This document shows, in pieces, positions 3-46,323 of a stretch of DNA of 64,000 bases; the first letter of the stretch is position 1; every line of letters begins with the position of its first letter. The notes below the pieces were generated by a model. That model was given only the letters and a program-made list of their open reading frames with translations. It had not been told where the DNA came from and ran no database searches. The position numbers and the translations under genes were made by a program. Source of the stretch: Verrucomicrobiota bacterium (GTDB taxonomy: Bacteria; Verrucomicrobiota; Verrucomicrobiia; Limisphaerales; UBA11358); assembly GCA_049511835.1 (NCBI GenBank), contig JBEKXN010000003.1, forward strand, positions 33,248-97,247, given 5' to 3'.

Positions 3-428
3 AAAGTTGATTTCTGTCACTATCTGATTTGTGGTGGACCGGGCGAAACGAACGGGACGCTGCAGACGGGTTTTGAGCAATCGCTGCGTCTCAAGGGCAC
101 GGTGATCATGGCGGTGGTTGGCATGCGGGTCTATCCGGGAACACAGTTGTTCGAACGTGCCGTCGCCGAAGGCCGCATTCATCGCGATGCCGATTTGCTG
201 TCGCCGGCTTACTATCTGGCGCCGGGGCTGACGGCGGAAGGAGTCTTCGAGCAACTCCGGGAGTTCGCCCGCTGCTCGCCCAACTGGATTGTTGGCGACC
301 CGGTGCCCGCCTATACCAGTTTGATCGAACGGCTGCGCAAACGTGGCGTGGTTGGCCCGCTTTGGGGCTACTTCTCGATGATTCAACGCCTGTGGCCGCA
401 AGGCGTCCCCGGAGCAACGAAACCGTGA
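3..428 (+). CDS. Radical SAM (B12-binding type) protein, C-terminal part; gene starts before window
   Basis: Frame open from base 3 (KVDFCHYLICGGPGETNGTL...GMRVYPGTQL), typical radical SAM C-terminal half; its TGA overlaps the next GTG. Confidence 0.7.
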   Translation, partial: KVDFCHYLICGGPGETNGTLQTGFEQSLRLKGTVIMAVVGMRVYPGTQLFERAVAEGRIHRDADLLSPAYYLAPGLTAEGVFEQLREFARCSPNWIVGDPVPAYTSLIERLRKRGVVGPLWGYFSMIQRLWPQGVPGATKP

Positions 429-19892: not shown

Positions 19893-19929
19893 TTGACATC
19901 AGCGAATGTTGCCACTATTGTTGCCACTA
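19893..19929 (+). promoter_or_regulatory. Integrase promoter overlapped by tandem 11-bp repeats (putative arm-type sites)
   Basis: TTGACA(19893)-N17-TATTGT(19916); TGTTGCCACTA at 19907 and 19919. Confidence 0.65.
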
Positions 19930-19950
19930 GAATTATACGAAAGGCACAAT

Positions 19951-21105
19951 ATGGCATCGCTCCGCAAAAAAGACCGCTCGCCGTTCTGGTTCGCGTGCTA
20001 CACGCTCCCCGATGGCCGTCGCACGCAACGCAGCACCGGCACACCCGACAAGCGCAAGGCTTTGGGCCTCGCCCTCAAATATGAGGATGCCTCCCGCGAA
20101 GCTGTCGCCGGTCGCTTCATCGAATCGCGGGCACGGAGAGTTATCGCAGACATCTACGCGCTTGCCAATACCGAAGTGCTTCCCAATTCGTCCACCAGCG
20201 CATTTTTGAAAACATGGCTTGACCGTAAATCGCTAGAAGCCGACGACGCCACCCACCAACGCTATACGGGTGTCATAACCCAATTCATCGAACACATCGG
20301 ACACAAGGCCAACGCCGACATCAAGAAAATCACGCCGACCGATGTTGCTGGTTTCCGCGACGCCGCCGCGCAGCGGCTTGCCGTCAGTTCGGCCAATTTG
20401 ATGCTGAAAATTCTCCGTTCCGCCTTTGCCGCCGCCCGCCGCGAAGGATTGATGGACGACAACCCCGCCGAGCGCGTGACCATCCTGAAGCAGCGGAAAA
20501 ACTTTGAACGCCGCCCGTTCACGCTGCCCGAACTGAAGCGGCTCATGGAACTGGCGGATAAAGAATGGCGCGGCATGATTCTTTTCGGCCTTTACACCGG
20601 CCAGCGGTTGGGCGACATCGCCACGCTTACGCGGACGAACCTTGACCTCACCAAGCAAGAAATCCGCCTGACCACCGGCAAGACCGGCAGACGGCAGCTT
20701 CTGCCGCTCTCCGCGCCGTTGCTTGACTACGTTAAAAAATTGCCCGCCAATGATGCGCCAGACGCGCCGCTTTTTCCGAACGCGCACGCGACGGTGCAGC
20801 GGCAAGGCCGCGCTGGAAACTTGAGCAACCAGTTTCATAAACTGCTTGTTGCTGCCGGACTTGCCGAGAAGCGCAGTCACCACAGCACCGGCAAAGGCCG
20901 CGATGCTTCGCGCGAACAAAACGAAATCAGTTTTCATTCGCTGCGGCACACGGCTACCACCCTGCTTAAAGCTGCTGGTGTATCGGACGCCATAACGCGG
21001 GAGTTCATCGGCCACGACTCGCCCACTGTGTCCAAACAATACACGCATATTCCCACCGACACCTTGCGGCGGGCCGCGAACAAGCTGCCAAACATTCTCA
21101 AATGA
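19951..21105 (+). CDS. Tyrosine recombinase/integrase
   Basis: YTGQRLGD (R), FHSLRH (HxxR), IGH, QYTH (Y); N-terminal arm-binding-like region. Confidence 0.95.
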   Translation: MASLRKKDRSPFWFACYTLPDGRRTQRSTGTPDKRKALGLALKYEDASREAVAGRFIESRARRVIADIYALANTEVLPNSSTSAFLKTWLDRKSLEADDATHQRYTGVITQFIEHIGHKANADIKKITPTDVAGFRDAAAQRLAVSSANLMLKILRSAFAAARREGLMDDNPAERVTILKQRKNFERRPFTLPELKRLMELADKEWRGMILFGLYTGQRLGDIATLTRTNLDLTKQEIRLTTGKTGRRQLLPLSAPLLDYVKKLPANDAPDAPLFPNAHATVQRQGRAGNLSNQFHKLLVAAGLAEKRSHHSTGKGRDASREQNEISFHSLRHTATTLLKAAGVSDAITREFIGHDSPTVSKQYTHIPTDTLRRAANKLPNILK

Positions 21106-21260
21106 ATGACGAGGCCAGCTTACCGTCGTGACCAGCGCGCTTTCTTGCTTCACTTCACCGGCTTGATGGTCGGCCCTGTTTCCCTCACGACCACGCCGGT
21201 TCCGTTCCGCAGAAAGCGCGCTCGTCACGAGCGGCATCTGTTTCAGCCGAATGATCGGCG

Positions 21261-21364
21261 TGCTTCCGCCTGCGGTTTGGCGACGGACGTTACGCTCCGG
21301 CTCCGTTCCTGCGTCTCTGCGCCTGCGCTCCACTTTCCCGTTCGCCAAACCGCAGGCCGAAGCA
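21261..21364. repeat. Stem-loop enclosing 31-bp motif, copy 1
   Basis: 15-bp IR 21269-21283/21342-21356 around TCCGGCTCCGTTCCTGCGTCTCTGCGCCTGC (21296-21326), identical to 45991-46021. Confidence 0.8.
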
Positions 21365-21481
21365 AGGGCGAGGATTGACCCTCGTTGCAGACTTTTCATT
21401 TGCCGACAAAGTGGATAATTTTAATCACAAATGATTTTGGCAATCGGCTCCGATTGCCAAGAGCCAGCAAACCAAGTTGAC

Positions 21482-22006
21482 ATGAGAAAGCGAATTGAAC
21501 CTCTTCAACCGCCCAACAGCTTTCATTTGTCGGCAGCGGATGGCTGGCTTGGGCTGGGCGATTTTTTGGCGGCAAACGAAGAACTGAAAAAAATCACAGC
21601 GGAATCAAGGTCACATCCTGATGTGCTGGAAATTCGCTGGCAGATTTACGCAAAAGAAAAGCGATGGGAGGAGTGCGTTGATGTTGCCAAAGTCTTCACC
21701 AAACTTGCACCCACCGAATCAAAAGCCTGGTTTCATCTGGCTTATTCAACCCGCCAAGTTAAAGACGGCGGCTTGGAGGCGGCGATTGAAATTTTGAGGC
21801 CAAGGGTGGAGAGTTTTCCAAAGAACCCTTACTTTTGCTTCTACCTTGCTTGTTATACGGCCCAATTAAACCGGCTGGTTGAATCAACGCAGTGGTGGGA
21901 TCAAGCATTGGAGATTGCGCGCAGAAACGGTCAGTTTAATAAAATCCGCCTGATGGCGCTGGATGATCCCGACTTGGAACCGCTGTTGAAAGGAATTGGG
22001 AAGTGA
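21482..22006 (+). CDS. TPR-repeat protein
   Basis: Helical repeats (AWFHLAY, FYLACYTAQL), terminal DDPDLEPL. Confidence 0.7.
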   Translation: MRKRIEPLQPPNSFHLSAADGWLGLGDFLAANEELKKITAESRSHPDVLEIRWQIYAKEKRWEECVDVAKVFTKLAPTESKAWFHLAYSTRQVKDGGLEAAIEILRPRVESFPKNPYFCFYLACYTAQLNRLVESTQWWDQALEIARRNGQFNKIRLMALDDPDLEPLLKGIGK

Positions 22007-22052
22007 CTTGAAGCAGTGATGCAGAATAAACAACAAAATCAATCGTTTGTTT

Positions 22053-22571
22053 ATGGCTTTAATTTCATGCAAAGAATGTAATGGATCTGTCAGCACAGAG
22101 GCTGTCACCTGTCCGCATTGTGGCGCACCGCAACAGCGACCTGTGCCGCCACCGTTGCCTGTGCCGCCGCAAGAACGAAAGATATATTTGGACAAGGTTG
22201 TGGCTGTAACCACGACACGGGTGGTTATCGGAGGAACAACCTATGCGTTGCGAAACATCACGTCAGTCAGCATGACATACACACCGCCAGGGGTTTTGGG
22301 GGCAATCCTGCTTCTCTTTGTTGGCATCATCATTTTCTTCATCGGGGAATTTCTTTCATACGGTGGAATCTCTCCAACGGCGATCATCACCTACGCGGCT
22401 GCCGGCATCATTGTTTGTGGAACTATCTTTGGAATGTGCAGGGCAAAACCTACGTATCATATCTGTCTTTCGAGCACGGCGGGCGAAATCCAAGTGCTCA
22501 CTTCCAAAAACAAGGCTTACATTGAAAAGATCGTGGTGAGCATCAATGACGCCATTGCACTCTATAAATAA
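22053..22571 (+). CDS. Zinc-ribbon + DUF6232-like membrane protein
   Basis: CKEC...CPHCG, TTTRVVIGGTTYALRNITSV, two TM segments. Confidence 0.65.
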   Translation: MALISCKECNGSVSTEAVTCPHCGAPQQRPVPPPLPVPPQERKIYLDKVVAVTTTRVVIGGTTYALRNITSVSMTYTPPGVLGAILLLFVGIIIFFIGEFLSYGGISPTAIITYAAAGIIVCGTIFGMCRAKPTYHICLSSTAGEIQVLTSKNKAYIEKIVVSINDAIALYK

Positions 22572-22632
22572 AGTTGAAGGCAGAGGTGAAGTTTGTCATG
22601 CTGGCGCGCGTCAGAAGCAACGTGGGAATTTT

Positions 22633-22944
22633 ATGATTTCAAACGAACGCCCCTCGCCTTTCCACCAGCAGCCGTATCATCAGCACTATGCACCGCAGCC
22701 ACCGCGTCCATTCGTTCAGGAAGACACGCTTAAATCCGAGCAAATTCAAATTGAGCGCAAGTCGTTTCTCTTGACGCTGAAGGAGAATCCGCGCGGACGG
22801 TTCCTGCGTATCTCCGAAGAAGTTGGCGGCAAACGCAATTCAATCATCGTTCCCGCCCCCGGGCTGGAAGATTTCAAAAGGTTGTTGGACGAGATGATCA
22901 CGTCTTCCAATAAGCTGCCGCCGAAACTTGCACCAACGGCCTAA
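22633..22944 (+). CDS. PUR-repeat (PurA-type) ssDNA/RNA-binding protein
   Basis: LKSEQIQIERKSFLLTLKENPRGRFLRISEEVGGKRNSIIVP matches the PUR repeat pattern. Confidence 0.8.
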   Translation: MISNERPSPFHQQPYHQHYAPQPPRPFVQEDTLKSEQIQIERKSFLLTLKENPRGRFLRISEEVGGKRNSIIVPAPGLEDFKRLLDEMITSSNKLPPKLAPTA

Positions 22945-22985
22945 TTGGGTAGAATTAAATAGAGCTATGGCAACAGGAGGTAATC

Positions 22986-23291
22986 ATGCAATCCTGGCAA
23001 ATAAAAGCACTTGAACTTGAAGAATCCGCATTGAAATACCTGGATGGAATCATTGCCGGTCATCCGCTATACGCCTCGTTCGGTTTTGTCTGTTTATTTA
23101 TGGCATTGGGCCTCGGCCTGATTTTGCTGCTAATCAGGGGACGAAAAAATCTAAAGGGAAAATCCTATGTCCCGCCAGTCATCATATACATGTCGGAACC
23201 GCCGCCGCCACCGCCCGACACGTTCGATCCATTTCCACCGCCGCACCACCATTCGATACCTTACGATGACAATAGTGATGAGTATCAATGA
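22986..23291 (+). CDS. Hypothetical membrane protein with Pro-rich tail
   Basis: GGAGG RBS; single TM helix; PPPPPP tail. Confidence 0.6.
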   Translation: MQSWQIKALELEESALKYLDGIIAGHPLYASFGFVCLFMALGLGLILLLIRGRKNLKGKSYVPPVIIYMSEPPPPPPDTFDPFPPPHHHSIPYDDNSDEYQ

Positions 23292-23315
23292 CGCCATTGT
23301 GAAGTGTTGGCACAC

Positions 23316-23537
23316 TCATTTAACAGATTCGGGAGCGATTGACGGACATAGCCGCAGGAAGACCTGCTTGCCACATTGGCCGACGCTCAAATCGTCGCAC
23401 CAGAAAACCCGGTCGCCTTCAATAGCTTCAATCTCGCGGATAAACAAGCCGTTGCGATGCAAATAACGGCCACCCACTTTTAGGTCACTTCCTTTAAGAT
23501 GCGAAAGTGCCGGTGCAGCTAATGTTTTTTCAGACAT
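23316..23537 (-). CDS. Hypothetical protein
   Basis: 73-aa ORF, plausible composition (LKVGGRY..REIEAIEGDRVFW). Confidence 0.5.
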   Translation of the reverse strand: MSEKTLAAPALSHLKGSDLKVGGRYLHRNGLFIREIEAIEGDRVFWCDDLSVGQCGKQVFLRLCPSIAPESVK

Positions 23538-23628
23538 CGGGATTCTTTGTTGATTTTACCGACAGATAAACCTATGCGCCATCAATCAGAATGTTGCAAC
23601 CCTTAAAATCAATCATTGCTTGGCGGCT

Positions 23629-23985
23629 CTAATTCAAAGCTGGTTCTGATTGTGGCGTGGTGGATTTCGTTTCCGTCACCACAATTTCCCGAATCTTCGG
23701 CTGGTTTTCAGCAATGAGCGAATGATATTTCTCCGGGAGTTTCATGATGCCAGATAGTTCCAGCCGCCAGACCGCCGTTTCAATGCGCTGCAAAACGTGG
23801 CCGGAAATCAAAATTTCATGCGTGGCAAAAACCAGACGCAGTTTTTGTTCCTTACCATCACTGTCCAGATCAGCAAAAACGAATTGATCCAGCGGCAGCA
23901 CGAGCCAGCGGGTTGCCGTCATTTGAACGCGCAGACAGCGCGCCTGTGAATCAGTGGTGTAACATTCGGGCGCTTTGGTGTTCAT
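23629..23985 (-). CDS. Hypothetical protein downstream of relaxase (paralog of 50059-50454)
   Basis: Overlaps relaxase stop; shared pattern with 50059 ORF. Confidence 0.65.
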   Translation of the reverse strand: MNTKAPECYTTDSQARCLRVQMTATRWLVLPLDQFVFADLDSDGKEQKLRLVFATHEILISGHVLQRIETAVWRLELSGIMKLPEKYHSLIAENQPKIREIVVTETKSTTPQSEPALN

Positions 23986-26761
23986 GTTTTTGTCCTGGTT
24001 GAGAATGACGCCGGGATTGTTTCAATCGGCAAAACGTATCGGCGGCATGTCGGCCAAACCGCAGGAGACAGCCATGCAGCCGGTCCCAAAACGGATTGTG
24101 ATTGAGCGGACGCAGACCACCGGCAAATTCCAACGCCAGCGGCCTGTGGCCGGAACGCGCCAGATTCTCGCGCAACTGCTCCTTGTCCGGTGTAAAAATG
24201 CGGACGCCACGCCGTCCGCGCGAAATGGTGACATACCATTGTTGCGCGTTCGTCGCGGCCTTGATGGTGGAATCGGAAAAGAGAACGTAATCCACCGTCT
24301 TGCCCTGTGAACCGTAGGACGTGACGGCGTAGCCGGGAAGAAATTCCCGAAAACTTTTGCCCAGAACACGGCCGTCGGTTAATTCAATGGTTCCATTGGA
24401 GTGAACTGATTTGACGGCGACCAATTCGCCGTTGGTGACGCGAGCGCCGGAGGCCAGCTTGCGATTGGCCTTGAGATGCAGTTTATCGCCTTGCGCGACC
24501 GGAATTTCGCGCGGCAGGCAAACAGTGATTTTATCCAGCACCTTGTTTGAAACCAAAACATCTTTTCCGTTAATCTCGACAAAGATGCCACATTCACGGA
24601 TTGCCGTCAGTTTTCCGCGCATCCCCGGTTCGGCTTGCCGCACTTTCTGATTGAACACAATCACCGCGTCTTGCGGATAAAATCTTTTGTCGCGCTTTTG
24701 CGCGTTGGTTAAATCTATTTTGTCCAATGCCCGAACGATGACATCATTTGCACCGAGCAATCCCTTTCCTTTAAGGCCATCACGCACCTTTGAATTGACG
24801 CGATGCACTTCCGCCCAGGTCTGCGATACCACCACGGCGGAAGCCTTTTCTTCCATGAGCCGAACATACTCATTGGCCAGCTTGTCCGCCTGCTCACCCA
24901 AGCCGCAGGAAACCACCGCGCCCATTTTGTCCAGCCGTTCAAACGATTCGGCCAGTTTGCCAGCGGCGGCAACTTCAACGGCCTTGCGATACTGTTTGAT
25001 CTTGGAACTTTCTTTTTTACTGCGGCCAAGTGCGGGGTCTTGGCGGCGAATCGTGTGAAGTTCGACCGGCTTGACGCCGGAATATCGTTCAATGGCCAGC
25101 AGCGCATCCGATGCCTCGACCGCTCCATGCTGGCGCGTGTCGCCCGACAAAATCACCCGCGCTTTTCGCTCCCGCGCCAGCCGGAGCAGTTCAGACATTT
25201 GGCGACCACCAATCTGCCCGGCCTCGTCCACGACGATAACCGTGCCTTCGACCAGTTCATGTTTGAGCAAAAAACTTGTCACTGTCGTTGGCGACGGAAA
25301 GCCGTCCCGCTCCATGCTGACAACCTGCTGGCGTTGCGGCGCGAGCACAACCACGCTTTTGCCGGATTGCCGGACCTGCTCGACCAGCTCGCCCAGGACA
25401 AAACTTTTGCCTGTGCCCGCGCCGCCACGGAATAGCGAAACCGCATTGGTGGAATGCAGCAGCGAATCCAAAGCCAGACGTTGCTCGTCATCCAGTTTTG
25501 GATCTGCCGTATAGGAATGTTCCATCAGTGGCCTGCAATTGCTCGTGCCGTCCTTGACGGTCTGGACAATTTCCATTTCCCGCAACAGCACTTCACGCAA
25601 TGTCACTTCGACAGGACGCTCCGAATTGCGGAGGTAAGGACGCGAGCGCGTGAACTCTTTGAGTTCATCCACGGAGAAGTTTTCCCCGCGTCCCCGTTCC
25701 AATGCCTGCTGCCACAATTGACATTCCAGCGCGACCGAGTTGCGGTCAAACAGATGATCCTCAGCCCATTGGACGGACTCACCGACGCTCATTCGGTTGC
25801 CAGTGGCTTTTCCCAAACGATTCGGAAGCTCGCGCAAGGCGGCGCGCTCGCTTTCACTCAACTGCACATCCCATAACGCCCGTTGCTCGTCATGGCTCAA
25901 TTCTTTCTGTTTGCGCGCCCGCTCCGTCGTAGCAGTCAACTCGCGCATGTCCATCAAATCGCCACCCACGCATTCCGGCTTTTCTGCCAGCAACTTTTTA
26001 ATGGCCTCGTCAATCTGCGTATGCCGCTTGGAAAAGCGTTCACAAATGTCATCCGAAATGCCCTCGATTTGAAAATCCCCACGCGCCCGGTTGTGAATCC
26101 CATAACCGAACCCGCGCAGCTTGCGGGCGAGTTCATGGTAATAGACGTTCTCGGCAAATTTCCGCGCCCGGAGGAGTTCATAATTTTGCAGCGCCTTCCA
26201 GCGATTTTCGACGGCATCAAACGTCGCGTTGAAGACGATACAATGGGTATGCAAATGCGGGTCCAGGGCGCGGGACGTATCATGCGTGAACGTGGCGGCG
26301 ACAAAATTGCCGGTGGAGCGGTCACAGTCCGCCTTGCCGATCCGAACCCGCGTTGTGGCAAATGCCTCAAATTCCCTCATCGCCGAACGGACGGCCTGGG
26401 CATGGGCTTCCAAAATCCGTTCATCCGCGCCGACCAATGCGGCGACCGAAACCGATTTGGGCGGCGAGAAAGTGAAATCGTAAAAAATCCGGCGATTGGT
26501 GGCGTTGCCCCCGGCCTTATCCATCCGCATGGTATTCAGGCGTGGCGTCAATGTGTCGCCCGAAGCCGGATGCAGGTTCTCGCAGAGACGCAGAAAGGCT
26601 TCCGCGCCGACTTTGCCAGACAGACCGAGCCGTTCTGCACCCAGGCCGAACCACTGGCCTGTCACCCGCTGCCCTTCATCATAATAATCCCCCACGCAAA
26701 GATGTTCCTCAAAGTATTCCTTTGCGTTCTTCAAATTGTATTGCGTCTTGGCCGTGACCAT
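23951..26761 (-). CDS. MOBF (TrwC-type) relaxase-helicase
   Basis: N-terminal DYY, DFTFSPPKSVS, HDTSRALDPHLHTH (HUH), helicase GGAGTGKS, VDEAGQ, YAVTSYGSQGKT. Confidence 0.95.
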   Translation of the reverse strand: MVTAKTQYNLKNAKEYFEEHLCVGDYYDEGQRVTGQWFGLGAERLGLSGKVGAEAFLRLCENLHPASGDTLTPRLNTMRMDKAGGNATNRRIFYDFTFSPPKSVSVAALVGADERILEAHAQAVRSAMREFEAFATTRVRIGKADCDRSTGNFVAATFTHDTSRALDPHLHTHCIVFNATFDAVENRWKALQNYELLRARKFAENVYYHELARKLRGFGYGIHNRARGDFQIEGISDDICERFSKRHTQIDEAIKKLLAEKPECVGGDLMDMRELTATTERARKQKELSHDEQRALWDVQLSESERAALRELPNRLGKATGNRMSVGESVQWAEDHLFDRNSVALECQLWQQALERGRGENFSVDELKEFTRSRPYLRNSERPVEVTLREVLLREMEIVQTVKDGTSNCRPLMEHSYTADPKLDDEQRLALDSLLHSTNAVSLFRGGAGTGKSFVLGELVEQVRQSGKSVVVLAPQRQQVVSMERDGFPSPTTVTSFLLKHELVEGTVIVVDEAGQIGGRQMSELLRLARERKARVILSGDTRQHGAVEASDALLAIERYSGVKPVELHTIRRQDPALGRSKKESSKIKQYRKAVEVAAAGKLAESFERLDKMGAVVSCGLGEQADKLANEYVRLMEEKASAVVVSQTWAEVHRVNSKVRDGLKGKGLLGANDVIVRALDKIDLTNAQKRDKRFYPQDAVIVFNQKVRQAEPGMRGKLTAIRECGIFVEINGKDVLVSNKVLDKITVCLPREIPVAQGDKLHLKANRKLASGARVTNGELVAVKSVHSNGTIELTDGRVLGKSFREFLPGYAVTSYGSQGKTVDYVLFSDSTIKAATNAQQWYVTISRGRRGVRIFTPDKEQLRENLARSGHRPLALEFAGGLRPLNHNPFWDRLHGCLLRFGRHAADTFCRLKQSRRHSQPGQKHEHQSARMLHH

Positions 26762-26793
26762 CGGGAATGAGTCTGCCAAAAGGCCGGTTCCAT

Positions 26794-26816
26794 TTTGTTC
26801 CAAAATGGAACAAAGC
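26794..26816. promoter_or_regulatory. Palindromic operator-like site, copy 1
   Basis: TTTGTTCC-AAAAT-GGAACAAAGC, identical to 49233-49255; lies between divergent relaxase and 26846 genes. Confidence 0.65.
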
Positions 26817-26845
26817 AACCGGCGGAAACTGGTTCACTGGGAGGC

Positions 26846-27343
26846 ATGAAAATGTTTGAAATGCCAACGCCAAAACCTAACGAACAACTTTGGGGAATTT
26901 ATTTCGCCGACAGGGAATACGCCCGCGAAAATTTTGACCCATTAAGGGGGGTTGTTTCAGCACCAACAAAAAATGCCGCCGAGGAAGCTGCGTTCAAGCT
27001 CGGTTTGGGCTGTGCATGGGCGCATCCCCTTCCACCTGAACAAGCCAAACAAATCCGTGAAATGCAGTCACCAGAACCTCCCACCATAACCATGCAGCCG
27101 ACCACCGCAGAATTACGCACCGCCATCGAAGTTTTGAAGATGCTCGATCAGCGCATCCATGACCATGCCGCTCATTCCGTATCGCAGTTGCCGGACACGG
27201 ACTTGGGCGACCGATATGCCGTCTTCATATCTGATCGAAGTATTGAACAGACCAGCCACATTGAAAAAGTCTCGATACAGTTAAAAAACTGGCGCGAGGA
27301 AATGTTGCAAGCAAGGAAGCAGCAAGTGACGCAATCAGTATGA
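26846..27343 (+). CDS. Hypothetical protein
   Basis: GGAGG RBS before ATG 26846; 165 aa. Confidence 0.6.
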   Translation: MKMFEMPTPKPNEQLWGIYFADREYARENFDPLRGVVSAPTKNAAEEAAFKLGLGCAWAHPLPPEQAKQIREMQSPEPPTITMQPTTAELRTAIEVLKMLDQRIHDHAAHSVSQLPDTDLGDRYAVFISDRSIEQTSHIEKVSIQLKNWREEMLQARKQQVTQSV

Positions 27344-27344
27344 A

Positions 27345-27550
27345 AATGAATTTTTTAACAATGCACGCCCTACCCCTTCCAAGGGGAAGGATTCTGCGCT
27401 TCGCGCATTGCCCCGCCAATGCGGTGTCAGCCGCCAACAAACACGCGCACATTCGTGCTTCGCATCATGCCAACAAGGTTGCTTCGTCAAGTGCCTCGCC
27501 AACTGCTTCGCTTGCCGCCAACCCTGTCGCCCCGCTCATGCTTCGTCACC
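27345..27550. other. Candidate oriT / stbS-like repeat region
   Basis: Between relaxase and traK-like gene; IR CGCATTG/CAATGCG (27404-27423); TGCTTCG at 27456, 27480, 27504, 27539; nic site not identified. Confidence 0.35.
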
Positions 27551-27551
27551 C

Positions 27552-28007
27552 ATGAACCGAAATGCCATCCCACCCGCAGCGTTGGATCGCTTCCGCGCTG
27601 CCGCGTCACAATACACGCATACCGCCAAGTCGCGTGCTTCGCGTCTGTTGACACTCAAGGATGACATAGCCGCGCTTCGCAAACGCGGTATCTCGTATCG
27701 CGCCATCGGTGAACTGCTCACCCAAAGCGGCATCCCCGCCTCGGACACCTGCGTCACCAACTTCTGTCATCGTGTTCTGAAAGAAAGGCTCGCTCACAAG
27801 TCATCCGCCAAGGGGCGTGCTTCGCGTCATGCCAACCATCCTGCTTCGCCAAAAACCACGCCGGATGCTTCGGCGAAAGCCAAGCTGCCGCCCGCGCCGG
27901 CCACAACCCACAAACCCACACCCATGCCAGCCGAAACTTCGGCGTTCGCGTCGCGCGGGCCGCGCATCGCCAAAGTTGAAATGCTGCCACCCGGAGAAAC
28001 AATATGA
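27552..28007 (+). CDS. TraK/StbA-like DNA-binding protein
   Basis: LKDDIAALRKRGISYRAIGELL..NFCHRVL helical HTH-like core, basic Pro/Ala tail; first of three coupled genes. Confidence 0.5.
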   Translation: MNRNAIPPAALDRFRAAASQYTHTAKSRASRLLTLKDDIAALRKRGISYRAIGELLTQSGIPASDTCVTNFCHRVLKERLAHKSSAKGRASRHANHPASPKTTPDASAKAKLPPAPATTHKPTPMPAETSAFASRGPRIAKVEMLPPGETI

Positions 28008-28705
28008 ACAAACGCCTCGATTTAATTTTTAACGGCAAGGGCGGTGTCGGCAAAAGTTTCTTTGCCGTCAATTTCGTCCAATACCTAAAAGACAAAAACA
28101 TCAAATTTGTCGCCTGCGACTGCGACAATGAAAATTCCACGTTAAAACGCTTTCATGGCGACGACGTGCAGTTTTTGGATCTGGCCCATCCGCGCGGCCT
28201 GGACGCAATGATTCGCGCACTGGAAAAAACCGATCTCGTCGTCGTGGACTGCCGTGCCGCGTCCACCGAGGTATTTTTCAATTATTTCGACGAGATTGCC
28301 TTGCAGCCAACGCTCAAAGACCTGTCCGCCGCGCTCACGCTTGTCATGCCCGTCAATCAGGAGTCCGACAGCATTGACCAGCTTAACCGCATCACCGACA
28401 AACTAAAAAACGCCTGCGCCTACGTTGTGCTACGAAACACGGTTCACAGCAATGATTTTGCCGTTTTTGACCATTCCGTCATCCGCAAGCGGCTGTTAAA
28501 AGAACTCGGCGCGAAGGAAATCACCATGAGCAAATTGCAGCCCTGGCTGGTGGAGGAGTTGAGCCACGACAATCTCACCATCACGCCCGCCGTGGCCGAC
28601 GGTCATCTGCATTTGCTGGACCGCCAGCGGCTGCAAACGTGGCAGCGCAAATTTTACGCGGAAATCGAATCGGCGGCGGAATTTCTATTGCCCGCAAAAC
28701 CATGA
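28004..28705 (+). CDS. TraL/StbB-like P-loop ATPase (ParA/MinD superfamily)
   Basis: NGKGGVGKS, CDCDNEN, VVDC. Confidence 0.75.
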   Translation: MNKRLDLIFNGKGGVGKSFFAVNFVQYLKDKNIKFVACDCDNENSTLKRFHGDDVQFLDLAHPRGLDAMIRALEKTDLVVVDCRAASTEVFFNYFDEIALQPTLKDLSAALTLVMPVNQESDSIDQLNRITDKLKNACAYVVLRNTVHSNDFAVFDHSVIRKRLLKELGAKEITMSKLQPWLVEELSHDNLTITPAVADGHLHLLDRQRLQTWQRKFYAEIESAAEFLLPAKP

Positions 28706-29037
28706 GCGCACCCGAACAAACAACGCCGCCCGACTTTGACGAGGATTTTTTGCAGGCCATCGCCAAATGGAAGGAGCAGTTCAAAATCAAGGATGATGAC
28801 CCGATTTTATTATTGCTGGATTTGTTTCGGATTCACCAAAACCATTGGGATGAAATTCGTCACCGGCAAATGCCCTCGCTCGATGAATTTGAAAAAGACA
28901 TCACGGCTTTGACCGAAGCTACAAAGATTTTGAAGGAACGGGCATTGAAAGAAATTCAGGCGGTGGAGTTGCCAACTGCCATTTACTCCGTCATCGCCGC
29001 CGTCATCGCCGGTTTTCTCATCGGAAAATTCTTATGA
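28702..29037 (+). CDS. TraM-like membrane protein
   Basis: DDDPILLLL motif, C-terminal TM; synteny after traL-like gene. Confidence 0.5.
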   Translation: MSAPEQTTPPDFDEDFLQAIAKWKEQFKIKDDDPILLLLDLFRIHQNHWDEIRHRQMPSLDEFEKDITALTEATKILKERALKEIQAVELPTAIYSVIAAVIAGFLIGKFL

Positions 29038-30494
29038 AACTCGATTTCATCCCGTTCCCCCCGGTTCATCTTCCGGCCATGTCCCAATCGTTGCGCGCTT
29101 TTGGAATCGGATATGCCATTTTACTGCTCATTATTGCCGCGCGGCTGCTGCTGCTACGCAATCGCCATGTCGCCCGACTTGGCGGTCTGACTTGGAAACG
29201 CAGTCAATTCACGCGCGGCTGGCTTATCACCGGCGACACCGGCTCCGGCAAAACATCTTCCGGCATCAACCAACTGGCGCATCAGGCATTTCAAAATGAG
29301 AAAAAATGGGGCGGCCTGTGCATTGACGAAAAGGGCGTCTATTGGGAAACGCTTTCGGCAATGGCGCGGCATTACGAACGCGAAACCGATTTGATTCATT
29401 TGCAAATTCAAGGTGACGGCCAGGCCGGACAAGCCTTGCATCGGTTCAATCTTACCGGCGACCGCAGCATCCCGTTCACAACGTATGCAAAATTCGTGGT
29501 GGACACTGCCACCAGTCTCGGCCAGGGCGGGGATAAGGGCTTTTTCAAGAATCAGGCGCAGACTCACATTGCGTATGCGTTGGAATTGCTTGCCGAATTG
29601 TCACGGCCAGTAACGCTATCCGGCGCGTTGGATGTGCTTTCCAGCAAGCCAAAGCTGGACGAGGAATTGGAGTTTCTGAACAAACTGCCTTTGCAGACAC
29701 CACGCCGCTTTGCCCTGAATTTCCATTTCAAGCATCGTTTTCTCGACCAGCCGGCAGAGCAGCTTGGCGGCGTCCGTGAAACCATTGGCAATTATCTGCA
29801 ATACTTCCTGACGCCTGAAGTCGCGGAAATCTTCTGCGTGGAAACAAGCACGTTCGATTTTTCGGAAATTGATAAGGGCAAAATCATCCTCGTTACCATG
29901 CCGCAGAAATTTCAGACCGAGCGGCGTTATGTGAACACGTTTTTGAAATTGCTCTTTTACAATCACGCCTTGCGCCGGTTCGACCAGCCCAAAAGCCAGC
30001 GCGGGAAAAATAATCTGCTCATCCTGTGGGCGGACGAGGCGCAGCGGTTTATGACCGCCAGCGAGGACGGCACGAGCGATTACAACTGCGTGGACGTGAT
30101 CCGCGAGGCGGGCGCCACCATCGTTGCCGCCGCGCAGTCCACGACATCGCTCATCCCGCCTTTGGGAAACGACAAGTCCAAAGTGCTGACGTTGAATCTT
30201 CGCAACCGGATGATATTTCGTTCCGCCGATGAAGCCGACGCGGTTCAAGCTGCGGATTTTCTCGGCAAAAAGCGCGTCATCAAACGCTCCTGGGGTTCAA
30301 GCGCCGGAAGACGGAACGTAAATTATTCCGAGGCCGAGGAACACAAAATCAAACCGTATCAGCTTCGCACGCTCCGCGACCATGAATGTGTGCTGGTCCA
30401 TTGTGAAAAGGGATTTCGTCGTTTGACCCTGCCGCCGCTGGAAGCCAATGGGCAAGTCGCTAAATGGTTCTCCTTGTGGCGAAAATTATTCTGA
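29034..30494 (+). CDS. virD4: Type IV coupling protein (VirD4/TraD-like)
   Basis: N-terminal TM, Walker A GDTGSGKT, Walker B WADEAQRF, AAAQS. Confidence 0.85.
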   Translation: MKLDFIPFPPVHLPAMSQSLRAFGIGYAILLLIIAARLLLLRNRHVARLGGLTWKRSQFTRGWLITGDTGSGKTSSGINQLAHQAFQNEKKWGGLCIDEKGVYWETLSAMARHYERETDLIHLQIQGDGQAGQALHRFNLTGDRSIPFTTYAKFVVDTATSLGQGGDKGFFKNQAQTHIAYALELLAELSRPVTLSGALDVLSSKPKLDEELEFLNKLPLQTPRRFALNFHFKHRFLDQPAEQLGGVRETIGNYLQYFLTPEVAEIFCVETSTFDFSEIDKGKIILVTMPQKFQTERRYVNTFLKLLFYNHALRRFDQPKSQRGKNNLLILWADEAQRFMTASEDGTSDYNCVDVIREAGATIVAAAQSTTSLIPPLGNDKSKVLTLNLRNRMIFRSADEADAVQAADFLGKKRVIKRSWGSSAGRRNVNYSEAEEHKIKPYQLRTLRDHECVLVHCEKGFRRLTLPPLEANGQVAKWFSLWRKLF

Positions 30495-30865: not shown

Positions 30866-31078
30866 TCAATTTTGACTTGGCCAATCTTTACGAGCGCCGA
30901 TATGCAAAGACAAACCGGCATCGGCGAGGCGGGACAAGCTCTCCATCACTTCTTCGTAGTTGTCTCCAATCACCCACGGATAAGCAATCATTACCCGCGA
31001 AACCCCGTTCGCTTTAGCTTCCATGCAAAGCCGAATGAAACCCGCAAACTTCTTTTCGTAATTCGGCGGCGTCTTCAT
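30866..31078 (-). CDS. Hypothetical protein
   Basis: 70-aa ORF co-oriented with upstream basic protein. Confidence 0.55.
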   Translation of the reverse strand: MKTPPNYEKKFAGFIRLCMEAKANGVSRVMIAYPWVIGDNYEEVMESLSRLADAGLSLHIGARKDWPSQN

Positions 31079-31098: not shown

Positions 31099-31329
31099 CT
31101 ATTTTTTTGCCGCTTTAACTCTTGCCCACCGCGCTTTTGCCGCAGCAGCGATTCTGGCTCTGCCCGCCGCACTCATCTTGTGCCGTTTCTTTGGAACAGC
31201 GACGGACACAGGCTTGGATGAAGAACCCAAAATACGCTCAAGCTCTTTTCCAAGTGATTGGATTTTGTCTTTGATGTTGGCGGCGCGACGTAGTTGTTTG
31301 GCTGACAGGCTGGCAATGGATGCACTCAT
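31099..31329 (-). CDS. Small basic nucleoid-associated-like protein (H-NS-like architecture)
   Basis: N-terminal coiled coil (LSAKQLRRAANIKDKIQSL), linker, KMSAAGRARIAAAAKARWARVKAAKK. Confidence 0.65.
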   Translation of the reverse strand: MSASIASLSAKQLRRAANIKDKIQSLGKELERILGSSSKPVSVAVPKKRHKMSAAGRARIAAAAKARWARVKAAKK

Positions 31330-31701
31330 GGCGCCAGTTAGAAACTTTTGGCCCCAAAAGTCAACCATCGGTTGGCGGAGGTTTATTCTATGAATGTCTC
31401 GGCTCGCACTAACCACTCATGTTCCAAAGCGCGAAGCGCCATAGCCGTCAGTATCGGCAATAAAAAATCTTAAACTATTTTTCGCCTTGAAAACATTGAA
31501 TGAAAACGGTGTTGAAGTTGAAAATCAGCCGAGTCGCCCCGCGTAAAATCAGCGTGCTTTTGTGTCAAGTGGCGGTGGCAACAGTGATTCCGTTCAATGT
31601 TTCCAAGGCTTCAGTCGCCAAATTTTCAATTCAGCAAAAATGCGCCTGATAAAATAGTGGTGTCGTTGAATGAATCAGCGACGTAACCGAAAAAGCAAAT
31701 T

Positions 31702-31929
31702 ATGGAAACAAATGAAATGACGGACACGCTCAAAAGCATCAACACCACTCCGCACCTTTGCCGGAGCAAGGTGAAACAAACCGCGCTGGAAATTGCCGCC
31801 GCGATCCGGCCAGCCAACAAGTTCAGCCGGGTTGGTATGAGTTTCGTTGAACGCATCGAAGCGAAAGTCCGTGCCGCCATCCGCGAGGAAGTCAGGATTC
31901 ATCCCAGCAAGGGCAAAACGCTTTTATGA
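31702..31929 (+). CDS. Small protein with candidate truncated histone fold
   Basis: SKVKQ (alpha1)...SRVG (L1)...long amphipathic helix...GKTL (L2); no alpha3. Confidence 0.5.
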   Translation: METNEMTDTLKSINTTPHLCRSKVKQTALEIAAAIRPANKFSRVGMSFVERIEAKVRAAIREEVRIHPSKGKTLL

Positions 31930-32014
31930 TGCGACCACGAGGAAAACAGCATTGATGTTCAAATTTGCGGCGTTGATTTTTCCGTGTTCAGCCGCCTGCT
32001 TTGGGCGCTTCCGG

Positions 32015-35186: not shown

Positions 35187-38100
35187 ATGGAAATTATGAA
35201 AAAAATCAAACGTTTTTCAGTCGCGTTTATTATCCTATGGACGACCTTGGAGAACTGCCCGGCTCAGATAGGAAATACTGGCACCAGCGGCGGCCCGAAT
35301 TCCGCCGCCGACCAGCAAGTTCAAGCCGCCGACCTGTTGGGCAAGAGGGGGCAACAAAAGGTGGATTTGTTCACGGGCAGTTTCGGTTATTCGATTCCCA
35401 TCGCGTGCGCGCCCGCGCGGAATGGTTCGGAACCGAATCTGGCTTTGGGGTATTCTTCGGCGGAAGAAAACGGCTGGTGCGGCATGGGTTGGAAGCTGGA
35501 GATTGGCTCCATTGAGCGCAATACGCGGGATGGCATTCCCATCGCGTATTCGACCGGCGCGACCCCGGCTCCGTTGACTCAATATGACAACAGCAAAGGA
35601 TTCATGCTTAATCTGTTGGGCAAAGGGTATAAATTGTTTTCGGTGGCAACCAATGGAGCACTCGTCGAATATCGGGCGGAGGTGGATACCGAATTTTTGC
35701 GGTGCTTTTGCGATACGAACCACAACAATTGGACGGTCTATGACAAGAGCGGCACTGCCTATTACTTCGGCGAGAGCACCGGCTCCCGCATGACCAACCC
35801 CAAGTCGGGTTGGGGAACCAATTACACAGCCACATTTCATTGGGCGCTGGACCAGATCGTCACCGCCACCGGGGACTGGACCACAATTGCCTATACCAAC
35901 TACACCAGCCCCTTTACCGGCCTGCCGGAAAGAACCCTTTATCCCGCTCAAATTGCCTACAACGGCCACACCAATGTTAACAGCTATGCAGCCAATGCTG
36001 TCGGACCGGACAAAATCATCTTTCAAACTGAGGTTCGGACCAACGATTGGCACTTTTCCTATCGGTCGGGTTTCCGTGCCGAGCAAGACCGGCGATTAAC
36101 CAACATTTTATGTCAGGCCGGATCACAATACGTCTGGAGCTATAAACTCAAGTATGGAATTTCCCCGGCAACCGCCCGCTCTCTGCTGACGAATATGGTC
36201 GTTTATGGTTTCGATGCGAGTAGCAACGCCACCGCATTTTTAACCAACACATTCGCTTATCAGGCAAACCCCAACGGCATATCGTTTGGTTCCACCATTA
36301 TGTGGACCAACATGATTTTGAACACGCCCGGCACCAGTTCGGGTTCTTATGAGCCGGAGGTGGCGGAAGTTGATGATAGAGGTGGATTTAGTTACACGGT
36401 TGCCGATCTGATGGACATAGACGGGGATGGCTTGCCCGACCGGGTGAGTTATGACAACTCAACTTCACCGCGCCGGTATCAGGTGCAAAAAAATCTAGGG
36501 ATGCAGGGCGCCAGCGGTTCATTCGGCTCGCGTTATGCCTTTGGCCCCACCTCCACCGGCCCCGGTTCGCCCAGCAGTTCCAATCCCATTCCCGATGGCA
36601 GCGACTATGACGAACTAAACACTCCCTACGGGCGCATTCGGGACATCAACGGGGATGGTTTACCCGACCGGGTGATGGACTATTGGGCTGCCATGAATTC
36701 AGTATTCAACACCCCGCCTTACACGCCCTTTACCAATTATGAAGTTCAGGTGAATACGGGACAGGGATTTTCCGGGGTGACGGCCTGGCCGGTGTCAACC
36801 GGGCCGCTGGCGATGAGCGACGTCAATTCAAGCTTTTATTTTTGCGTGGAATCCGGCGGACCGAACGTGGGGTTGTTCGACATCAATGGCGATGGAATGC
36901 CCGACCGGGTGATGTCGGGCTGGTACACTCAAGGGGCGATGACCAATTTCATGGTGCAGTTCAACACTGGCACCAATTTCACTCAGCCAAAGATATTTGG
37001 TCCCTACCGCAGTCAGAATTGGAATAATTACCCAGGAGGGCAGATTGCAAATTATCCGCCCTACTATTGGGCGGGCATAGAAGCTCCAGAATCCCACATG
37101 ATTGACATTAATGGCGATGGTTTGCCGGATCATATCATGTGGCCGATGAATCCAAGCAATGTGGGGGCTGAATTGCCTCATCCAGCTTCTTTCTTCGCCA
37201 CGGAATATAACGATGGCTATTCCTTTGAATCCACCAATTCGTCCACCAGCGTCCCCGGTGCTGCCGACCAATGGCCGGGAGTCGTCGCCCAGGCGAATAA
37301 CGGCATGATTACTTATGGCACGACCACTTTTTATTCTGATGCCATTTGGGATTTGCCGTTTGCGGGTTTGTATGATCTTAACGGCGACGGACTGCCGGAT
37401 CGCGTCGTGCTTGATCAAACCTCCTTGAACACCTCAACCACAAGGTGGTTTGTTTATTTGAATAACGGCCACGGCTTCAATACCACGCCCATTACTGTGA
37501 CCAACATCGAGAACCAAGGCCATTATAGCACGAGCACTGATGCTCCCTGGTGGAGTCCGCAAGGTTCCGTGGATGGCTACGGCAACGTAACCACTTTGAT
37601 TGATATAGACGGTGACGGGTTGCTGGACCGGGTGATGGCGGTATATTTTAACGGCACCCCCACAGCTAATTATTTTCTGGTTCAATTGAACAACGGGCCA
37701 TTCCCGGATTTGTTGACCAATATCAACAATGGTGTCGGCGGCAATCTCGGCGTCACCTACAACTCGACTGCTGACTACGATAATCGGGTGGACCCCACCA
37801 ATCCCAATTCCGTCAGTCACATGCCCTTTCCGCATCAGATAACGGCGGCAGTGACCGCATCCGATGGCATCAATCTGGCGCAAGCGACGACCTACGGCTA
37901 CGCGGGCGGCTTCTTTGACGGGGTTCGCCGCGAGTTGCACGGGTTCGCCGTGGTTAGTGTCACCGATCCCACCTCGCGCACGACCATAAATTATTTCCAC
38001 ACGGGAGGCGGCAGAAACTATTCAGGTTTGGGAGAATATCAGGACACCAATTCCGTGGCGGGCAACTTCGCCAAATCGGGAATGGCCTACCGGGTTGAAA

Positions 38101-41100
38101 CCTACGGGAATGACAATAAACTCTACCATGTCAAGGTCAATCAGGTTGACCAGACCAGTTTGGGCAATGGCCGTTATTTCCCGTTTACGACGCTGACCTT
38201 TGACTGCGATTATCCCGGAAATGGCACGCCCAAAGTCACGGCCACAGACTTTGCTTACGATACAACCACCGGCAATGTGACCAATAAAGTCGAATACGGT
38301 TTGGTGAATAGTTTCAATCCGACCAATGTTGGCAGTTTTTCCTTCTCGGATGCGGATGGCACGGACACAAAATTCCATAAAACTCACTACGCAACACTCA
38401 GCACTAACAGTTATATCCTCGACCACGAGGACGATGTCACCCTCACGGATACAAACAACAATGTGATTCAGGAAACGAAATATACATATGACCAGTCCAG
38501 TGGCGCGATTGCTACAAAGCTGACAATGATTTCATCCGGTTACTATGCCACCAACAGTTATGGCAATTATACTTCGTATGGAATGGTCGGCACGACCACG
38601 GACCCTGTCGGTGTCTCGACCTCCATTGCCTACGATTCCACTTACAATACTTATCCGGCAACGAAAACAACCGGGGGCTTCCAGACCACGACCAGTTACG
38701 ATGCGCGTTCGGGCGCGCTTGTATCTTCCACCGACCCAACGGGTATCACCATCAGCAATAGTTTTGACATTTTCCTGCGTCCGACTGAAACGGACAAAAT
38801 TCCCGTTGGCGGCGGCTCATCCATCTGGACGAAAAAGTTTGGCTATCCGGCCACGTTGAAATCCATCGCCTCCGGTATGGCGACGAATTACACCGATACG
38901 GTGATTAATGACGGTGTCGGCGGGTACACCAATCGAACCTACATTGATGGATTTGGGCGAACCGTCCAGTCGCGCAACCAGGGTGAAAACGGAAATTACC
39001 GGGTGGTATCAACCGCCTATGACGGGCGCGGCAAAGTCCTCCTGACCACTTGGCCAATTTTTGATACTGCCATCGGTTTCAAAAAACCATCAGGCAATCC
39101 GATGGCCACATGGATTGGTTACGATGCCGCCGGGCGCATGGCCACCAATCGCGCTGTCACCGTCACATTCGATTCCAACGGTGCGTTCAGCAGCAAGACC
39201 GACAGTGCAGGAGACACAGGCACTTCACCTTTGGCGGCCAAGACTTGGAGCTATGTGAATGGCACCGATCCGTGGTGGGTTATTTTCACGGATGAAGATG
39301 GCAAGGTGCGCCGCTACGGTCTGGATGCCTTTGGGCGCACCAATCAGATTCAGGAGGTGGACGGCAGCAGCATCTACACCAACTTATTGAAATATGATCT
39401 GGCCAATAACCTGACCAACATCGTCAACGCCAATGGCGAGAACACCTTTTGGGCCTACGACAATGCCGGCAATATGACGGCGATGGCCGACCCCTATCTC
39501 GGCCAGTGGAAATATCTGCGGGATTTTGCCGGCCGGATCCGCGTGCAAACGGACGGACGCGGGGATGTCATCAAACTGAATTACGCAAATTCGTCCGGCC
39601 AAGATCCATTGGGCCGGATACTGAGCAAGGAAATTTACAGCCTCAATTATTCAAACCAGACGCTCGTTCCAGTTTTCACCAATACCTACGTTTATGACAA
39701 CAGTGACGACGGCAATTACACGGTGTTTCCGGGGCTGCTCTATAAAACAACCGACAGCGAGGGCTTTGAAAAAAACAGCTATGATTCGCGCGCGCGGCTG
39801 GTGAAAACCACGCGCCACTTGAACATCATCAACTTTGACTACACCACCAGCTACACCTACAACGACGGGGACAAAGTCACGTCCACCGCCTATCCAAACT
39901 CTGGCCCGGTCATCACCAACTCCTACTTCCACTGCGGCAGCCTCAGTTCGGTGTCTCGCAGCGGCGGCAGCGCCTATTACACGATCAGCGCGGGAAGTTA
40001 TGATGAATTCGGGCACGCGACTAATTTTTTATATGACAATGGTGTGACCACCAGCCGCAGTTACTATTCCGTGTCCAAACGTTTGAAAAACATCTCGGCA
40101 ATTTCTAGCGGCTCGATCTTCAGCCGGACTTTCACCTACACGCCCGGCGACGACATCGCTTCCCTCAGCGGCACCGGCCTCACCAACACAATGAGCATGA
40201 CGTATGATAATCTGCACCGCCTCAAGAGCTACACGGGAACGGGAGGCTTGTCTGGCAATTATGGATACGACGCTGTTGGCACCATCACCAACAACATCGA
40301 AGGTGGTGGTTCCAGTTACGGTTACGGCGTCCGGCGGCCACAGGCTGTCAAGAGCGCCTTCGGCTGCACTTATCTTTACGACTTGTGCGGCAACATGATT
40401 GTGCGGCGCGCGGGCGCGACCAACTCACAGTCGCTGGTCTATGACGCGCAAAACCGGCTGGTGCGTGTGGCCCAGGCAGGGACGAACTTCATGCTGGTGA
40501 AATTCGGCTACGCGGCGGACGACGCGCGCTTATGGAAATGGAACAATCAGACGCCGACCAATCTTCAAGTTTGGATTGGAAATATCTACGAGGAAAAAGG
40601 CGGCAAGAAGTTGTTCCATGTTTATGCCGGAGGCCAACTGGTTTGCACGTTTGAAACGAATTCGGTGCTCTATGGTGGAACCGATACGAACAAGGTTGGC
40701 TACTATTACCACCAAGACCAACTGACCTCATCCAGTGTATTGAGCGATTCATCGGGCAACCAGACGGAAGTGAACGCCTATTATCCTTTCGGGCGGACGC
40801 AGACGGCCAGCCCGCAGGCGGGCTTCCAGGTGTCACGCCGGTTCACCGGGCAGATACTGGATGCGGAAACCGGCCTTTACTATTACAACTTCCGCTATTA
40901 CGACCCTGAGTTAGGGCGATTCATTCAAGCGGATGATCGAATTCCAGACCTCAGCAATCCGCAAAGCTATAACCGTTACAGCTATTGCCTCAATAACCCG
41001 TTACGCTATACTGACCCGGATGGCCACGGTTTCTGGAGCACCGTCGGTTCGTTTTTCAACGCGGAGACATACAAGAGCTCTTACCAGTTGGCAACGATGC

Positions 41101-41603
41101 ACGACTCGTTTGGTTGGAGGTGCGTGGAAATTCCGGTGGCCATTGGGGGCATTGCAATAGCAACGGCAGATAATGTATTAAATGTCGTGTCACTAGGCGG
41201 CAAGGGAGCCGCAGAGGGCGCAGGAAAGGAACTGATTAAAGTTGCCGAAGGACTTGGAAAAGAAGAAGGAGAGAAAGTCGGGGCGAAAACAGTTACGAGA
41301 TATATGGGCACAGAGGAAGCCGAAAAATCTATAAAGACTGGCGAGATACCTAACGTAGGCCGTGACGAGAAGGTGCGCCCTACTCATGTAACTACGGATA
41401 CTCCCCTTAACAGTGCCAGTGAGGCGCAGAAAACGTATGAACTACCAGTAAAACCCACGCATCGCGCTACCGTGCCCGCCGAGCGGGCAGGCCCATTGGA
41501 TCCTGTGCCAGGTAGACCGAAAACGAGCGGCGGTGGTTCTCAAAATACCGTTCCGAGACCGATTCCCGTAAAACCGGAAGAAATAACACCACTTGATAAA
41601 TAA
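35187..41603 (+). CDS. SpvB/TcB-TcC-like Rhs (YD-repeat) polymorphic toxin with signal peptide
   Basis: SpvB-like N-terminus ([27 protein letters not shown]), DxxGDGxxD repeats, YD repeats, Rhs core [39 protein letters not shown], variable C-terminus. Confidence 0.92.
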   Translation: [2138 protein letters not shown]

Positions 41604-46281: not shown

Positions 46282-46323
46282 CGTGCAAAGAAAACATTAA
46301 CAATGAAAGAGAAAGGCAAATAT

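Follow-up and report, generated by a model that had tools for sequence, protein, structure and literature searches.

We analyzed a 64,000-nucleotide stretch of DNA from a Verrucomicrobiota bacterium (the window) and found that an ICE within it carries a small gene, ORF A, which probably encodes a minimal histone-fold protein. The product would be distantly homologous to the alpha3-truncated prokaryotic histones and would act as an element-encoded DNA organiser. In profile comparisons, it is nearest to the face-to-face (FtF) type, represented by HTkC. Judged from the profiles and a predicted structure, what is new here is best described as an alpha3-less, element-borne form of the alpha3 histone family.

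ORF A lies where a preliminary description of this DNA had placed it and contains the SKVKQ, SRVG, and HPSKGKTL motifs noted there (Table 1). The ICE setting was likewise confirmed: the integrase, TrwC relaxase, ParA, type IV coupling protein (T4CP), DUF932 protein, TraG/VirB4-like ATPase, and TrbI were all found. The order integrase, relaxase, ParA, T4CP is the same in the relatives L003-L006. To the left of the ICE are the chromosomal genes for PNPase and polyprenyl synthase, while 3' of ORF A a pair of XRE regulators is found together with a response regulator and a large polymorphic toxin gene of the Rhs/Tc type. The cargo slot past the regulators accommodates different giant polymorphic toxins among related ICEs: an SpvB/TcdB-mid/RHS protein in the window (35187-41603) and an RCC1/WD40/DUF6531/Tox-SHH protein in L003/L004/L007 (10544-16228+), with the flanking backbone unchanged. 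At least three ICEs in the 3.8-Mb genome are close relatives of one another (relaxase 84-88% identical), and more distant relaxase/ParA/response-regulator modules are present on contigs C5, C14, C26, C28, and C29. This is an unusually heavy genomic load of one ICE family.

Table 1. Features of the ORF A locus and of the surrounding ICE (window positions, or residues of the ORF A protein where stated)
Feature	Position	Strand	Description
Tyrosine integrase, ICE	19906-21105		
TrwC relaxase, ICE	23951-26818		
ParA, ICE	28004-28705		
T4CP, ICE	29034-30494		
ICE integration and DNA-processing module framing the ORF A locus	19906-30494		Integrase, TrwC relaxase, ParA, T4CP
ORF B	31099-31368	-	76 aa from ATG 31329, or 89 aa from ATG 31368
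Leader	31455-31701	+	About 250 nt, conserved, non-coding, transcribed
Imperfect inverted repeat/hairpin in leader	31484-31609	+	Arms 31484-31514 and 31579-31609; 31 nt, 81% complementary
Inverted-repeat core	16082, 31491, 31593		AAACATTGAA / TTCAATGTTT; exact copies of the core motif at these positions
Terminator-like hairpin and T-run	31540-31566		At the tip of the long leader hairpin
Nearly invariant block just before the start codon	31647-31683	+	Lowest variability of the region, 0.057
Extended -10-like sequence	31647-31655		TGATAAAAT
Palindrome/hairpin	31660-31682		GTGTCGTTGAATGAATCAGCGAC; one compensatory G-C to A-U change in L029
ORF A	31702-31929	+	75 aa; METNEMTDTLKSINTTPHLCRSKVKQTALEIAAAIRPANKFSRVGMSFVERIEAKVRAAIREEVRIHPSKGKTLL; contains SKVKQ, SRVG, HPSKGKTL
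ORF A, N-terminal extension	Residues 1-16		Clade-specific
ORF A, alpha1	Residues about 21-35		SKVKQTALEIAAAI
ORF A, L1	Residues 36-45		RPANKFSRVG
ORF A, alpha2	Residues 46-66		
ORF A, L2	Residues 67-75		HPSKGKTLL; no alpha3 after L2
DUF932 protein, ICE	46303-47166		
TraG/VirB4-like ATPase, ICE	50738-53512		
TrbI, ICE	58561-59622		

ORF A is a real gene under strong purifying selection. In 12 close relatives, variability at the three codon positions was 0.011/0.019/0.131, and 163 codon differences were synonymous versus 42 that were non-synonymous. A word-indexed search yielded 192 relatives, all labelled hypothetical and mostly from peat/wetland Verrucomicrobia, and when 1.84 billion cluster representatives were searched exhaustively with a profile, 393 family members were found at E ≤ 1e-3. 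These are unannotated, uniformly basic, stand-alone proteins of about 60 aa. The typical member reads LNRxxVKxxALExAxxxRPAxxFxRV(S/G)xxFLxRIEAxVRxxIxxEVxxHPSKGKTL(x), and there the chain stops: the C-terminal end is at ...HPSKGKTL, and nearly all members terminate 1-2 residues past the L2 Thr (...GKTLL, ...GKTLK). Among 95 members, the median pI was 10.8, with a pI above 9 in 99%. Pfam, NCBIfam, and PHROGs scans gave no match for ORF A or for 44 family members, and a PDB sequence search with the family profile (HMMER) returned only a chance match to ribosomal protein L13 (E 1.9).

A few members depart from the single-domain layout. In the "one-and-a-half" variants P0158, P0224, P0231, P0233, and P0244, alpha1-L1-short alpha2 is followed by a second L1-alpha2-L2-like segment, and P0177, encoded on the phage-like contig L036 together with a baseplate gene, is a full tandem doublet. 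These variants and the doublet may be single-chain pseudodimers. P0177, folded without an alignment (MAFFT split the single-domain homologues over both copies), gave a poor, unusable model with a pLDDT of 42.

The relationship to histones was seen in profile comparisons. With hhalign, a family profile of 44 sequences matched HTkC with a probability of 94.2% (E 1.2e-7) and a set of 15 Thermococcales FtF histones with a probability of 95.5% (E 1.3e-8, 52 columns). A profile of 95 sequences matched the same 15 histones with 95.2% (E 2.6e-8, 54 columns). The alignment covers the whole fold from alpha1 through L2 and brings SKVK, RVS/RVG, and G(R)KTL into register, at an identity of 28-31% across the 52-54 columns. 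The scores were well above two kinds of null. The best of 150 shuffled HTkC sequences scored 16.4 and reversed HTkC scored 18.5, versus 38.7 for the real sequence; when 400 ORFs of 55-95 aa from the same genome were used, the best non-family score was 21.1, versus 38.1 for HTkC. Across these comparisons, real FtF-type matches scored 38-43. Furthermore, the FtF profile also finds the solved histones Bd0055 (7e-12), HLp (2e-7), and HmvA (1.7e-4). The HTkC and Bd0055 sequences used for comparison were taken from the PDB, and the HMfB and Bd0055 motifs quoted in the preliminary description agree with the PDB sequences.

Direct hhalign comparison of the family with the single sequences of Bd0055 and HMfB gave no match, and the match to HLp was weak (E 0.0045), weakly in register, and not significant alone. 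The homology link therefore rests on one histone subfamily, the Thermococcales FtF histones. A search with the standard histone models, which had been proposed as a check of the histone idea, found nothing: none of 44 family members matched CBFD_NFYB_HMF (PF00808) or DUF1931 (PF09123) at E ≤ 1. The histone fold is backed instead by the hhalign match to the FtF profile. A six-frame whole-genome search with the same two models also gave no match in the host, while control genomes do match.

The AlphaFold2 (AF2) monomer model of ORF A, based on the 44-sequence alignment, had a pLDDT of 85.9 and comprised helices at residues 21-35 and 46-66 joined by a 10-residue loop, with the C-terminal segment extended. 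In a Foldseek search of the PDB, most of the listed matches were histones or histone-fold proteins (H3, H4, H2A, TFIID subunits), but all E-values were above 1, as expected with such a small query. The best compact match was HTkC (rmsd 2.6 Å, 50 columns, 26% identity). In summary, the hhalign probability of 95%, the far lower nulls, the predicted helices, and the mostly histone structure matches support reading ORF A as a histone fold. We consider it likely that the family is homologous to histones.

The alternative is that the family is an unrelated basic helix-loop-helix mini-protein, e.g., a mobile-element transcriptional regulator, and that its likeness to HTkC is convergent. Significance limited to a single histone subfamily, the failure of the standard histone HMMs, and the Foldseek E-values above 1 would suit such a protein. 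So would the extra L1-alpha2-like segment past the shortened alpha2 in some members, which is unusual for histones, as well as the nearly invariant palindrome beside the ORF A start codon and the adjoining XRE regulators. Nevertheless, convergence would have to account for a match that spans the entire fold, aligns all three signature motifs without a shift, and scores far beyond both kinds of null. Moreover, the structure matches were mostly histones, not HTH, RHH, or other small DNA binders. We regard the convergent origin as unlikely.

Assuming a histone fold, ORF A can be compared with the published classes. Alpha3 histones are defined by an alpha2 that is 4-5 residues shorter and an alpha3 of 3-4 residues (PMC11390915, PMC12701072). 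FtF histones additionally carry an RxTxxxxD motif and a tetramer interface that uses alpha3 (PMC11390915, PMC12701072). Profile similarity of the ORF A family was found to the Thermococcales FtF group only. The earlier observation that the distance from RV to KT is about 5 residues shorter than in HMfB was correct: R43 to T73 in ORF A spans 30 residues, versus 35 for R19 to T54 in HMfB, so that alpha2, predicted at residues 46-66, is shortened by the expected 4-5 residues. Family-wide, the RV(G/S)-to-KT spacing is within one residue of that in HTkC. The absence of alpha3, also noted before, holds as well. The ORF A chain ends two residues past the L2 Thr, and nearly all members have no alpha3 turn in place of the short alpha3 of 3-4 residues. 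From the RxTxxxxD motif only K-T is kept; the Arg of RxT corresponds to an alignment gap in the family (HPSKG-KTL versus AEGRKTL), and the position of the Asp is beyond the C-terminus. Together, the short alpha2, the missing alpha3, the gap at the Arg, and the missing Asp therefore describe a more extreme, "alpha3-less" histone form, which fits, and goes past, the published definition of alpha3 histones (PMC11390915).

This has consequences for oligomerization. FtF tetramers require alpha3 and L2 residues, and their interface is made of residues from the C-terminal part of alpha2, L2, and alpha3 (in HLp, R49, N53, R55, T61, and F63) (PMC12701072). Since the ORF A chain ends at L2, the alpha3 part of this interface cannot exist, and judging by its sequence ORF A probably cannot build an FtF-type tetramer.

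The closest known proteins are the FtF histones HTkC of Thermococcus kodakarensis (PDB 9F2C; PMC11390915) and HLp of Leptospira perolatii (PDB 9QT0; PMC12701072), which likewise have about 60 aa and are basic. They share with ORF A the alpha1-L1-alpha2-L2 order and an alpha2 that is about one turn shorter than in HMfB. In comparison to them, ORF A has 7 additional residues in L1 and at the end of alpha1, the protein stops two residues past KT without an alpha3 turn, and the family resides on mobile elements, whereas the FtF histones are chromosomal. HBb (Bd0055) of Bdellovibrio bacteriovorus (PDB 8CMP, 8FVX; PMC10627809) is also a small alpha3-type protein with SKVK and (R)KT motifs. It functions as a dimer that does not assemble further (PMC10627809), the most likely state for a protein that lacks alpha3. 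However, HBb is essential, abundant, and chromosomal (PMC10627809), while the ORF A family is sporadic and element-borne, and direct profile similarity between the two was null. Bacterial histones have been reported in less than 2% of genomes, HBb and HLp being the only ones studied (PMC12701072).

Alpha3-type folds on elements that infect bacteria have been described as "phage histones" (PMC11390915) and as VTTH/VHHH of Caudoviricetes (bioRxiv 10.1101/2024.12.06.627149), and some ORF A family members similarly lie on phage-like or IMG/VR contigs. According to their descriptions, the phage histones and VTTH/VHHH are set apart from the ORF A family: they were found with existing histone HMMs and use a C-terminal helix or loop to assemble as tetramers or head to head, whereas the Pfam histone HMMs do not detect the ORF A family, in which nothing follows L2. 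A further parallel is offered by the nucleoid-associated proteins of plasmids and ICEs, such as the H-NS homologues Sfh and Sfx, HU/IHF-like proteins, and NdpA (PMC6606824, PMC7074111), which are small, basic, DNA-organising, borne by conjugative elements, and expressed during the residence of the element. Their folds are unrelated to ORF A, and the proposed likeness would be one of function.

We propose the following working model. ORF A would consist of alpha1, L1, a shortened alpha2, and L2 and would end two residues past the conserved L2 Lys-Thr, both the alpha3 stub and the Arg/Asp of RxTxxxxD appearing to have been lost. Two molecules could form a head-to-tail dimer via antiparallel alpha2 helices. 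DNA would then be contacted by the paired L1 (R43-V-G), by L2 (K70, K72, T73), and by the N-terminus of alpha1 (K23, K25). Expressed while the ICE is resident, the protein would serve as a nucleoid-associated or architectural protein encoded by the element, perhaps nucleating on its own conserved leader DNA. Such a DNA-organising role seems to us reasonably probable.

A histone-fold derivative could instead act by protein-protein contacts, e.g., as an early anti-defence factor or a modulator of host nucleoid proteins. The loss of alpha3 and of the Arg of RxT would agree with this, as would the position of distant members amid small early/accessory genes on phage-like contigs, next to DUF932, DUF2958, and DNA methyltransferases, which are typical companions of leading-region and anti-restriction genes. 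On the other hand, the family-wide pI of about 10.8 and the retained L1 Arg and L2 Lys-Thr point to nucleic-acid binding, and environmental RNA shows expression of ORF A from resident elements. Known DNA mimics, like many anti-defence proteins, are acidic, which we also count against an anti-defence role of ORF A. We therefore judge it decidedly unlikely that the protein acts mainly through protein partners.

The distribution of the family is patchy, and all examined contexts are mobile elements (ICEs and phage-like contigs). This genome contains three ORF A copies, 96% identical, each within one of three related ICEs. Two of these ICEs are on contig C3 and one is on C7, where ORF A is located beside the relaxase rather than the coupling protein. 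ORF A was detected in 11 of 49 genomes of the genus and in 2 of 32 other genomes of the order; across the phylum, this genome alone was positive among 301 sampled. In close relatives, the gene is found in a relaxase-ParA-T4CP-A-XRE-XRE-response regulator-toxin arrangement or beside a T4CP remnant. Distant members lie amid phage-like stretches of small genes, accompanied by a helicase, by an integrase plus AbiEii, or by HTH_17 plus a methyltransferase; others in such stretches adjoin DUF2958 or DUF932, or share an IMG/VR viral contig with DNA methyltransferases, an integrase, and a clamp-loader/DnaC-like ATPase. No conserved neighbour gene was found among the distant family loci. Single-protein scans of viral contigs revealed one ORF A family locus, and tblastn against annotated plasmids and phages detected no ORF A relative.

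The preliminary description had paired ORF A with a divergent "H-NS-like" protein, ORF B, in a two-protein chromatin module. ORF B was indeed present on the minus strand at 31099-31329 as a 76-aa helical and Arg/Ala-rich basic protein, although the gene callers of relatives often start it 13 codons earlier, at ATG 31368 (89 aa). It has an N-terminal amphipathic helix, LSAKQLRRAANIKDKIQSLGKELERILG, followed by a basic repeat, KKRHKMSAAGRARIAAAAKARWARVKAAKK, and a pI of 12. Its homologues, more than 1,700, form a family that is separate from and much larger than that of ORF A, with one or two C-terminal copies of KKRxKMSAAGRARIAAAxKARWAKVKA. ORF B had no Pfam or NCBIfam match and no PDB sequence match below E = 1, and the H-NS C-terminal domain (Pfam Histone_HNS) was not found in it. 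The label "H-NS-like" is at most a loose architectural analogy, and we dropped it; ORF B may belong to a nucleic-acid-binding family. ORF B paralogues are encoded at C28:8585-8794 and C29:15206-15430. Directly downstream of ORF B on the same strand is a 70-aa ORF (30866-31078, minus strand) without a family match. According to tblastn, it has no second genomic copy and is therefore absent from the other ICE copies.

A dedicated module of a histone and an H-NS-like protein that jointly coat or silence the ICE would be in line with the divergent arrangement of the two genes in the window, in the other ICE on contig C3, and in L017 and the L003-L007 element type, with the very basic character of both proteins, and with the appearance of both regions among RNA contigs. 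However, among 15 distinct close loci, ORF B adjoins ORF A at only about 4, and it does so at no distant locus: it is absent at the 11 other close loci with enough upstream sequence and at every distant one, where ORF A has no conserved neighbour of any kind. Even in this genome, one of the three ORF A copies (C7) is without ORF B, and the two ORF B paralogues on C28 and C29 are without ORF A. In addition, no H-NS, MvaT, Lsr2, or other known domain could be detected in ORF B. Since ORF B is missing at most ORF A loci and its paralogues occur without ORF A, the pair is an occasional arrangement, not a module, and we consider a joint function of this kind highly improbable. In conclusion, the profile homology and the concordant AF2 model support the histone-fold idea, whereas the evidence on ORF B separately fails to support the H-NS label and the module.

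The spacer between the two genes had been described as AT-rich and about 370 bp long. Its length is indeed 372 bp (333 bp if ORF B has 89 aa), but the AT-richness is only mild (GC 0.445-0.47 versus about 0.50-0.55 in the flanks). With a GC content only about 5-8 points under that of the flanks, we rejected the spacer as an AT-rich silencing target.

Among close relatives, the companion that always travels with ORF A is its leader. The leader is conserved with 72-92% nucleotide identity wherever close ORF A relatives occur, including loci without ORF B. A 49-codon frame in it (31500-31649) was rejected as a gene, given that it has no third-position bias and contains stops and a frameshift in relatives. 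The leader had no match in Rfam. Thermodynamics favour its long hairpin (fold z = -3.1; 0 of 200 shuffles as stable), but covariation is negligible, and the repeat may therefore be either a DNA site or an RNA structure. The most conserved part of the leader is the 50 nt before the ATG. The block at 31647-31683 is possibly a promoter with an operator, or a 5' stem-loop, as far as its sequence suggests; a sigma-70 consensus scan found no site. The leader as a whole could be an attenuator, an sRNA, or a protein-binding DNA site. The leader was also considered as an oriT, for which the intergenic region near the relaxase would be a more usual location.

Transcription of the leader and ORF A in situ was shown with four wetland metatranscriptomes. 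Assembled contigs that share 85-97% identity with the window accumulate over 31467-31951, where the summed contig depth was 22-124, versus 0-15 in the flanks; this is a crude measure, in which several related elements are summed. In 4 of 4 runs, the 664-nt bin holding ORF A was the highest of a 20-kb stretch. Furthermore, RNA contigs, which are unstranded, bridge the leader and ORF A, spanning 31460-31721.

Taken together, the data raise the tentative possibility, which we rate as nearly but not quite an even chance, of a mobile-element-specific clade of alpha3-less minimal histones. Its members (two helices, two loops, about 60 aa; at least 393 clusters at 50% identity), undetected by existing histone HMMs, would dimerise and bind DNA as a chromatin protein belonging to the element itself; the structured 250-nt leader accompanying each gene would control that gene or serve as a nucleation site for its protein. 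We know of no histone-fold proteins described previously on bacterial ICEs, and the ORF A clade would be the first. If this is true, histones would be present on ICEs in Verrucomicrobiota, a phylum whose sampled genomes are otherwise without histones, and would join the H-NS, HU/IHF, and NdpA types borne by conjugative elements and phages. A family of this size that escapes the Pfam histone models would enlarge the known diversity of the histone fold and would show how far this fold can be trimmed, namely, to zero alpha3. With about 60 aa and natural variants that include a tandem doublet, the ORF A family is a small and tractable target for structural and DNA-binding studies, and the conserved leader is a candidate cis element for specific binding.
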